A stretch of DNA of 31,137 nt from a virus (IMGVR_UViG_2565956719_000009), one strand, 5' to 3'. Counted from the stretch's first letter, positions 18,726-20,625 are shown. Notes: generated by a model from the letters alone, not told the origin. Numbers and translations: made by a program.

Positions 18726-18981
18726 TTCAATGACTCAAAACTATGAACTGATTGTGAAAGGGATCCGCAATTTTGAGAATAAAGTTACGGTAACTTTAGC
18801 ATTACAGGACAAAGAACGCTTTGACGGTGAAATTTTTGACCTGGACATCTCGCTGGACCGTGTTGAAGGTGCTGCGCTGGAGTTTTATGAGGCAGCGGCC
18901 AGAAGGAGCATCAGACAGGTCTTCCTGGATGTCGCTGCCTGAACCGCCCCGGGTTTCCTGGAGAGTGTTTTATCTGTGAAC

Positions 18982-19872
18982 TCAGGCTGCCAGATCATCG
19001 TTTCCGATGGAAGCATAATAAGCTTTTTCTGCTTCTGCCGGAGGAGTATGGCCCAGCCTTTCCAGCAATCGTCGATTGTTATACCAGTCCACCCACGTGA
19101 GTGTGGCCAGTTCCACTTCTGCACGGTTTTTCCAGCTCTTACGGTGTATTACCTCCGCTTTGTAAAGACCATTGATGCTCTCCGCCATCGCGTTGTCATA
19201 CGAGTCGCCTGTACTTCCTGTTGATGCCAGTAATCCGGCTTCCTTAAGCCGCTGTGTGTAGGCCAGCGATACATACTGAGAACCTTTATCACTGTGATGG
19301 ACCGTGCCGGACGGTCGACGGGCCCATAACGCCTGCTCCAGTGCATCCAGCACGAATGTCGTTTCCATGGACGATGAGACCCGCCACCCCACGATGTATC
19401 CGGCAAACACATCAATGATGAACGCCACATAGACGAAGCCCCGCCATGTGCTGACGTAAGTAAAATCAGCCACCCACAGCTGGTCAGGTCGTTCTGCCAC
19501 GAACTGACGGTTTACGCGGTCGCCTGCGGCAACGGCTTTCCGGCTGATGGTCGTACGGACCTTTTTACCCCGGAGAACACCGGCAAGTCCCATAACCGCC
19601 ATGAGACGTGCCACAGTGCATCTGGCCACTCTGATACCTTCCCGTAACAACTGACGCCAGACTTTACGCACACCGTATACCTTGTGATTTTCATCGTATA
19701 CGCGCTGTATCTCTTTCTTCAGCCAGTCATCGCGCTGCGCACGGGCACTGCGTTTATCCGGATGATGTCGCTGTTGCTGACAGTGGTAATACGTTGACGG
19801 GGCAATATGCAGTTCGCTGCATAGCGGTCCGACCCCGTACTGCTCACGCAGCTTATCCAGCAGTGGCATCAT
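18982..19872 (-). CDS. IS629 transposase OrfB (DDE integrase domain)
   Basis: 296 aa; IS3-family DDE transposase; overlaps orfA at an A-rich slippery region (GGAAAAAATGATG on the minus strand). Confidence 0.9.
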
Positions 19873-20195
19873 TTTTTCCAGAGGCGGTCGAACTCCGCCT
19901 TCGCAAAATAAGCGGAAGCCTGGCGAAGGATATCGTTACTGCGGCGCAGTTCACGATTTTCACGTTCCAGCTCTTTCAGACGCTGACGTTCAGCGGTGGT
20001 GAGCCCTCCATCACCGCCCCCGGTATCCCGCTCATGCTGGCGAACCCAGACACGCAGAGTCTCCGGCGTACAGCCAATCTTTGGAGCAATGGAACAAATT
20101 GTCGCCCATTGTGAGTCATATTCGCTCTGACTTTCCAGAACCATACGGACTGCCCGTTGACGGACTTCGGGGGAAAAACGAGTATTTTTAGTCAT
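19869..20195 (-). CDS. IS629 OrfA (HTH and leucine zipper)
   Basis: 108 aa, [57 protein letters not shown]...; typical IS3-family OrfA. Confidence 0.9.
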
Positions 20196-20352
20196 CCTGT
20201 TTACCTCTTTCTCAGGAAGTTTAGTCTCCAGGATTCCCGGGGCGGTTCAGCCGGGTTATGTGAAGGGGATGAGCAGTCGCCGGAAAAGCGCCCCGTAATT
20301 TTAGAGGCGCAGAATGTATGGATAACCTACAAAGGAAAGCTACCGGGAAGGA

Positions 20353-20625
20353 TTACTGGTTCCCTGAAGACTCCGCCGAAATGGTAGTTTTGCCAGCATA
20401 ATTTTCTTCCAGCAATGCCGCCAGCCACTTGAAAGAATTTTGTTGTTCCTGGGACCATTTGGGGTTGCGTGATTCAAAATGAATGGATGCCAGCGTTGGC
20501 AGCATTTGCTCCCTGGGAATTGATAAGGCCAGATGTGAAAATGCAACAGTGAGGGCATTTACATCATCCCGAAGCCTGGAAATGCAGTCGAGCAACTCCT
20601 GTAGAGAAATGGTGCTATTGTCCAT
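20353..20625 (-). CDS. Hypothetical antisense-oriented ORF inside the lysis cassette
   Basis: 90-aa ORF on the minus strand between the IS629-disrupted gene and the endolysin; no motif recognised; could be a moron or a spurious ORF. Confidence 0.3.
   Translation of the reverse strand: MDNSTISLQELLDCISRLRDDVNALTVAFSHLALSIPREQMLPTLASIHFESRNPKWSQEQQNSFKWLAALLEENYAGKTTISAESSGNQ

Follow-up and report, generated by a model that had tools for sequence, protein, structure and literature searches.

In a 31,137-nt stretch of viral DNA (IMGVR_UViG_2565956719_000009), to which we refer at its full length as the window, we identified an intact insertion sequence (IS) of the IS629 group inside a gene of the ydfR family, located between the holin and the endolysin genes of an S21-type lysis cassette (Table 1). 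We consider, with a probability of roughly 0.85, that IS629 split an accessory ydfR gene lying between holin and endolysin, and that this is ordinary, probably near-neutral IS traffic in one clonal lineage.

The ydfR open reading frame (ORF) starts at position 18730, 4 nt past the holin stop codon (TAA, 18723-18725), its first base being the fifth after the stop. In its interrupted form, the ORF stops at a TGA codon (18940-18942) made up of the first three nucleotides of the IS, giving a product of 70 amino acids (aa), and the C-terminal 44 residues, which are nearly invariant in most of the YdfR family, are now cut off from any start. Deletion of the IS together with one GCC copy yields a frame of 345 nt and 114 codons. 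We built a 1587-bp reconstruct by joining window positions 18401-18939 to 20253-21300, and at least 25 complete Escherichia coli genomes (including UTI89, IHE3034, NU14, PMV-1 and UM146) contain it from end to end at 100% identity, each with the gene intact; in UTI89 it is annotated as ‘YdfR family protein’ (WP_000193259.1). Since the rejoined sequence is found without any difference, and with an intact gene, in at least 25 genomes, the arrangement in the window is not due to chance, and its reading as an insertion has all the proof that sequence can give.

The element itself is intact, and copies 100% identical to it are present on many E. coli chromosomes and plasmids. Plasmid copies from Shigella flexneri and S. 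dysenteriae share 99.1-99.3% identity with the window IS, and the O157:H7 copy, labelled as IS1203 family in RefSeq, shares 96.3%; the divergence described between IS629 sub-types is of 4-5% (PMC3271280). The window copy corresponds to the variant of Shigella and extraintestinal pathogenic E. coli (ExPEC), as opposed to the IS1203-type of O157, and IS629 seems to be a fair name for it, set by copies in genomes and plasmids rather than by alignment to the ISfinder reference. Both termini, read inward, start with TGAACCGCCCCGGG, the element having the ends 5'-TG...CA-3', and the terminal repeats are imperfect, with 23 of the first 25 nt being equal (the repeat finder delimits arms of 26 nt with 92% identity). 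The GCC duplication is perfect, is located directly outside each IS end and falls within the 3-4 bp range of IS629 (PMC3271280). A 404-aa OrfAB protein is predicted, as a computed fusion, from a -1 shift at the A6 run at 19872-19877. The length, the terminal repeats, the target duplication and the two-ORF organization with its predicted frameshift all agree with the IS629 group of the IS3 family, to which we assign the element on these features. The first-pass annotation of the window had described a 1310-bp IS629 with matched inverted repeats between two GCC copies, inserted in an ORF beginning 5 nt after the holin stop, and had restored a 114-codon frame. All its coordinates hold, the restored sequence is the same as ours, the 5 nt correspond to the position of the first base, and the inverted repeats are present in the imperfect form mentioned above.

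The restored protein is recognized by the Pfam family DUF1327 (PF07041; E=7e-44, 148.4 bits for a cut-off of 25, residues 1-112) and, over its full length, by PHROG 406 (E=3e-68). We found 337 homologues of this protein in a large protein collection, the named ones being almost all from Escherichia or Shigella, and the uninterrupted allele is present in related prophages at 100% identity. This is the reverse of what the first-pass annotation had listed as speaking against its proposal, namely the lack of homologues and the presence of unrelated sequence at this place in related phages. No function is assigned to the YdfR family in Pfam, PHROGs or NCBIfam, and NCBIfam has no model for it. Some members of the family (P0028, P0041 and P0080) are longer, with 176-183 aa and an extra conserved C-terminal extension of approximately 65 residues; one cluster of this long form occurs on 463 contigs, and PHROG 2091 (183 positions) matches it.

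YdfR relatives were detected on more than 589 viral contigs, and the gene order was analysed in 80 retrieved IMG/VR loci. In all 80 loci the ydfR homologue begins exactly 4 nt past the holin stop, and an endolysin gene was also seen downstream in 78 of them, the spacer between ydfR and the endolysin gene being usually of 343 nt (when a convergent 90-aa ORF is present) or 69 nt (when it is absent). Judging from these matches and gene orders, ydfR belongs to a known, named and widespread family and is a fixed resident of this subtype of S21-type cassette. Among phage records, 427 have this holin type and 101 have YdfR (about a quarter), including those of Stx1a and Stx2c phages, phage 86, YYZ-2008 and mEp460; because of this difference in number, ydfR is accessory overall. 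The first-pass annotation had considered the gene as extra cargo inside the lysis operon, which is correct in relation to the minimal cassette; however, this cargo is not anonymous, as YdfR/DUF1327 is fixed in the cassette subtype.

In our main reading, an intact IS629 copy transposed into ydfR, between codons 70 and 71, in the S21-type cassette of a lambdoid prophage, and the 3-bp target GCC was duplicated by the IS3-family mechanism. No change relative to UTI89 is seen in the holin, endolysin and spanin genes. In lambdoid phages, late transcription is performed by a Q-modified RNA polymerase, which reads through intrinsic and Rho-dependent terminators. Because the lysis genes (holin, endolysin and Rz/Rz1) were left untouched, and would be transcribed by such a terminator-resistant polymerase, lysis is probably still functional. 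The likely cost of the insertion would be the loss or change of YdfR function, accompanied by, at most, a modest polarity due to the additional 1.3 kb of untranslated RNA. Nothing contradicts the anatomy of the IS and of the split gene. Nevertheless, three points weigh against an account in which so little is changed. Near-neutrality is itself an assumption. With the IS, the untranslated stretch that precedes the endolysin start has grown from 343 to 1788 nt, counted from the last stop codon, and this greater length could permit Rho-dependent polarity or mRNA decay, if the Q modification is incomplete. Finally, with the conserved C-terminal segment lost, an impairment of YdfR is more probable than the retention of its function.

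As for YdfR, it is possible, although we do not favour it, that the allele is not null: the 70-residue product would keep the folded N-terminal domain and still bind RNase E, perhaps in a more promiscuous way, its activity being changed and not abolished. YdfR from E. coli K-12 was described, in a paper from 2026, to bind the catalytic N-terminal half of RNase E, as observed by two-hybrid assays and co-purification, and it co-purified with Rne(1-598) and with RNA (PMC13232886). The clone obtained in the screen comprised YdfR residues 1-72, interacted with RNase E and RNase G, and was positive with a larger number of bait constructs than full-length YdfR (PMC13232886). The surviving 70-aa product is close to this published fragment; the window protein and K-12 YdfR share 84% identity over residues 1-74, their tails beyond this point being unrelated, and the start codon and the 4-nt gap after the holin stop are unchanged. 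In the AlphaFold model of the restored protein, with a mean predicted local distance difference test score (pLDDT) of 62, three strands and a helix are confined to residues 5-73 (block-mean pLDDT of 64-87), and residues 72-114 have a pLDDT below 50. According to this model, the insertion falls where the predicted N-terminal domain ends. A Foldseek search of the model against the PDB gave no significant match (best E=0.24).

Several observations argue against a retained activity. The last three residues of the helix are lost together with the highly conserved C-terminal 44 residues, and the RNase E data were obtained, by two-hybrid and pull-down, with the K-12 protein, whose C-terminal tail is unrelated to that of the window protein. 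Overexpression of YdfR barely affected the transcriptome, with few transcripts being changed (PMC13232886). Moreover, other independent IS insertions are located at approximately codons 49, 62 and 100, and thus the N-terminal domain is not consistently spared. A more far-reaching version is that YdfR acts as a phage RNase E-binding factor of S21-type cassettes and that the IS allele expresses the N-terminal domain alone, being a natural separation-of-function and not a knock-out, which we regard as quite improbable. If the product were active, truncated YdfR could modify the decay of RNA, of the host or of the phage, upon induction, and, given the report on K-12 YdfR and RNase E, the allele is a possible natural tool to study the role of YdfR in the lysis cassette. 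The gene was also flagged in an envelope-integrity screen from 2014, as cited in the RNase E study (PMC13232886).

It seems unlikely to us that the insertion is strongly polar, lowering the expression of the endolysin, of the spanins and possibly of downstream head and tail genes, and leaving the prophage lysis-defective (‘grounded’). In favour of such an effect are the lengthening of the untranslated stretch mentioned above, all three + strand frames across the IS being full of stop codons, the convergent transposase genes that the IS brings with it, and a weak terminator-like site with a 5-bp stem on the sense (+) strand, located inside the inverted repeat (18949-18961). This marginal site is the only one that the terminator scan revealed on the sense strand of the IS; strong terminator sites inside the IS, and sigma-70-like promoter sites within or leaving it, were not found in the + strand scans. 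The first-pass annotation had stated that the IS carries terminators, which finds no support beyond this one site, and the uncoupling of holin from endolysin by IS terminators, which it had raised as a possibility together with an effect of the antisense DNA, is weakly supported. Against polarity, a Q-type antiterminator is encoded upstream, and a far stronger hairpin already stands in the way of transcription. This hairpin is a terminator-like structure at 18443-18471 (+), with a 12-bp stem followed by a T run, located inside the late operon approximately 40 nt upstream of the holin start, which implies a dependence of the lysis genes on antitermination for their expression. In addition, translation of the endolysin is not coupled to that of ydfR even in the native cassette, where 343 untranslated nt and an antisense gene separate the two genes, which were thus uncoupled before any insertion.

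Insertions of the IS629 group were identified at other points of this cassette type. In ydfR, they are present in EPSSH018 (at the equivalent of window 20341-20343, with the duplication TAC), in Z1323CEC0019 (23 nt upstream of the window site, with a downstream deletion) and in F8704-2 (at approximately nt 147, in the opposite orientation). The holin gene is interrupted in AHB12 (IS at 3174-4483 of the AHB12 locus, 100% identical to the window IS, duplication GGC), the antisense 90-aa ORF in APEC E12053 (duplication GTCG) and the spacer between ydfR and the endolysin gene R in the UTME-2 group (duplication CTG). EPSSH018 has, besides the IS629-group copy in ydfR, a different IS3-family element in the holin gene (825-2376 of the EPSSH018 locus). 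We counted 12 genomes with the IS within reach of the cassette in one orientation and, using the flipped IS as query, 26 in the other. An orientation bias was considered and rejected on the basis of this flipped query, as the first searches had joined pieces on one strand only. In O157:H7, 62% of the IS629 copies are located in prophages or prophage-like elements, with duplications of 3-4 bp and no target consensus (PMC3271280), and the recurrence observed here fits this published picture. In the literature on IS629 within lysis genes we found nothing specific.

This recurrence could also be read as the sign of a selected hot spot, in which IS629 insertions between holin and endolysin would be favoured for attenuating the lysis of resident prophages. 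Two observations are in line with it, namely the 12 and 26 genomes just mentioned and the acquisition of IS629-group copies by different lineages, independently and at least seven times, inside or beside the holin gene, ydfR or the ydfR-endolysin spacer, but we judge it very unlikely. IS629 is generally enriched in prophages and lacks a target consensus (PMC3271280), the insertions are given here as a raw number, and many of the 38 genomes are clonal, as those of the UTME-2/O157-like group. Furthermore, the insertions share neither a common point nor a common orientation, and several of them leave the holin, endolysin and spanin genes intact.

The exact 70-aa product of the split gene is encoded on scaffold KI538721.1 of GCA_000495015.1, in which 8213 bp are identical to window 14730-22942. 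The same junction is present on a contig of GCA_903977855.1, which extends 87 nt into the IS, and a contig of GCA_047275315.1 ends exactly at the junction. As two independent NCBI assemblies have this junction, the insertion did not arise from faulty assembly. A fourth place at which the 70-aa product occurs turned out to be a contig break in the uninterrupted allele. The junction query gave no match among 5426 complete E. coli genomes, two apparent matches corresponding, on checking, to other insertion points, and the exact junction pattern is absent from the GTDB species representative genomes. That the IS was misplaced as a repeat in a draft scaffold has a negligible probability: GCA_000495015.1 is only at scaffold level and IS copies are classic misassembly points, but an artefact is contradicted by the perfect 3-bp duplication, by the flanks rejoining exactly to a known allele, and by the second and third assemblies.

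Table 1. Features of the lysis region of the window and of the IS629-group element (positions counted from the first nucleotide of the window).
Feature	Position	Strand	Evidence or remark
Q-type late-gene antiterminator	14438-15127	+	PHROG 304 ‘anti-termination protein Q-like’, E=7e-104; identical gene of L011 with Pfam Phage_antiter_Q
S21-type class II holin (pinholin type), 71 aa	18510-18725	+	Pfam PF04971 Phage_holin_2_1, E=9e-33; UTI89 ‘class II holin family protein’
ydfR-family gene, 5' part, codons 1-70	18730-18939	+	Pfam DUF1327 on the restored protein
Target-site duplication GCC, left copy	18937-18939	.	Single GCC in the uninterrupted allele
IS629-group insertion sequence, IS3 family	18940-20249	- (transposase genes antisense to lysis genes)	1310 bp; copies 100% identical in many E. 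coli genomes
Terminal inverted repeat, orfB-distal end (right inverted repeat, IRR, relative to transposase)	18940-18964	.	Repeat finder
IS orfB, 296 aa, DDE/rve catalytic domain	18982-19872	-	Pfam rve, E=8e-28, and HTH_21; NCBIfam transpos_IS3, E=1e-93
ALIL frameshift-stimulating pseudoknot across the orfA/orfB overlap	19798-19914	-	Rfam RF01497, 120 bits for a gathering score of 50
IS orfA, 108 aa, helix-turn-helix	19869-20195	-	Pfam HTH_Tnp_1, E=7e-13; N-terminal part of NCBIfam transpos_IS3
Terminal inverted repeat, orfA-proximal end (left inverted repeat, IRL, relative to transposase)	20225-20249	.	Repeat finder
Target-site duplication GCC, right copy	20250-20252	.	Single GCC in the uninterrupted allele
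ydfR-family gene, 3' part, codons 71-114 and stop	20253-20387	+	Detached from start; restored frame
Convergent 90-aa ORF	20353-20625	-	PHROG 2411, full length, E=5.5e-55; UTI89 hypothetical protein WP_001351274.1
Signal-anchor-release (SAR)-type endolysin, 177 aa	20731-21264	+	Pfam Phage_lysozyme PF00959, E=4e-24
Rz i-spanin with embedded Rz1 o-spanin	Rz 21563-22027, Rz1 21783-21965	+	Pfam Phage_lysis, E=1e-52, and Rz1, E=5e-20

The genes flanking the insertion have the properties of a pinholin-type holin and of a SAR-type endolysin, as the first-pass annotation had proposed and as also indicated by their Pfam matches. The holin has a dual start (Met1 and Met4, in MDQMEK) and a hydrophobic core at approximately residues 31-60, and a pinhole behaviour is predicted from its sequence. 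The endolysin contains the motif E35-8-D44-5-T50, and its residues 8-23 (GLSAAVLALIGAGASA), of which 11 in 16 are glycine, alanine or serine, constitute a predicted SAR segment. The 90-aa ORF on the opposite strand overlaps the 3' end of ydfR by 35 nt, is preceded by a good Shine-Dalgarno sequence and is present in 46 of the 80 related loci, most of the others having the 69-nt spacer. It belongs to no Pfam or NCBIfam family. This ORF is native to this cassette variant and is not part of the IS, and may represent a moron lying in antisense orientation within the lysis operon.

Other elements were noticed around the lysis genes. A small ORF (21388-21561, +) lies between the endolysin and Rz genes and is matched by PHROG 6632, a 45-aa hypothetical protein being annotated in relatives. 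Upstream of the holin, an ORF of 75 aa (18014-18241, +) has the domain DUF1737, and its counterpart is an incomplete pseudogene in UTI89 and AHB12. Three phage-borne tRNA genes (16789-17038, +), with the anticodons CAT, TCG and TCT, are located between a DNA methyltransferase gene and the lysis genes, the CAT tRNA being labelled as tRNA-Ile by RefSeq in relatives. Between this tRNA cluster and the holin, we identified two full-length matches to STnc100, a small RNA of Rfam (17114-17304 and 17582-17791, +; 136 and 161 bits), each ending in a terminator-like hairpin. Elsewhere in the prophage, Rfam matches correspond to the sok antitoxin RNA, from a hok/sok-type module (12253-12428, +), and to the small RNA DicF (4537-4588, -).

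The insertion is a case of ordinary prophage decay and not a new system, all components belonging to described families and nothing being outside known biology. Taken alone it matters little, as one more prophage insertion of IS629 that inactivates or truncates a small accessory gene. It is of use for annotation, where the ORF fragments at 18730-18942 and 20253-20387 should be joined as the halves of a single ydfR pseudogene, with holin, endolysin and Rz/Rz1 as an intact lysis core.

The closest relatives of the cassette are the prophages of UTI89, IHE3034, NU14 and other ExPEC strains, which are 100% identical over 1587 bp (holin, ydfR, antisense ORF and endolysin) and lack the IS. Further upstream, the window prophage differs from the genomes with the uninterrupted allele, the best genome matches covering no more than 94% of its initial 18.9 kb. 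The cryptic prophage Qin of K-12 has the same organization (essQ-ydfR-rrrQ-rzpQ), with an S21-type holin, ydfR 4 nt further on, a lysozyme and Rz/Rz1. In contrast to the window, K-12 YdfR has 103 aa with an unrelated C-terminal tail, its gene directly overlaps rrrQ, and neither the antisense 90-aa ORF nor an IS is present. The nucleotide similarity between the window and Qin stops at 18935 and resumes at approximately 20721, just before the endolysin start. The break within K-12 ydfR is a mosaic joint at a domain boundary, 4 nt before the IS insertion point. A link between this recombination joint and IS targeting was considered, and we take the proximity as a probable coincidence, since neither O157 nor most family members show such a break, their conserved C-terminus extending across the site.

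The IS629/IS1203 insertions of O157:H7 and its relatives are similar to that of the window, being due to a 1310-bp IS3-family element with a preference for prophages and having occurred independently in the same cassette type. Phage 21, with its S21 and R21 genes, shares with the window a holin of the P21 holin S family with dual start, a SAR-like endolysin with the E-8-D-5-T motif, and Rz with embedded Rz1. The minimal cassette of phage 21 is not known to have a gene between S and R. The cassette subtype of the window differs from it by having ydfR, and often also the antisense ORF, in the gap between these two genes.

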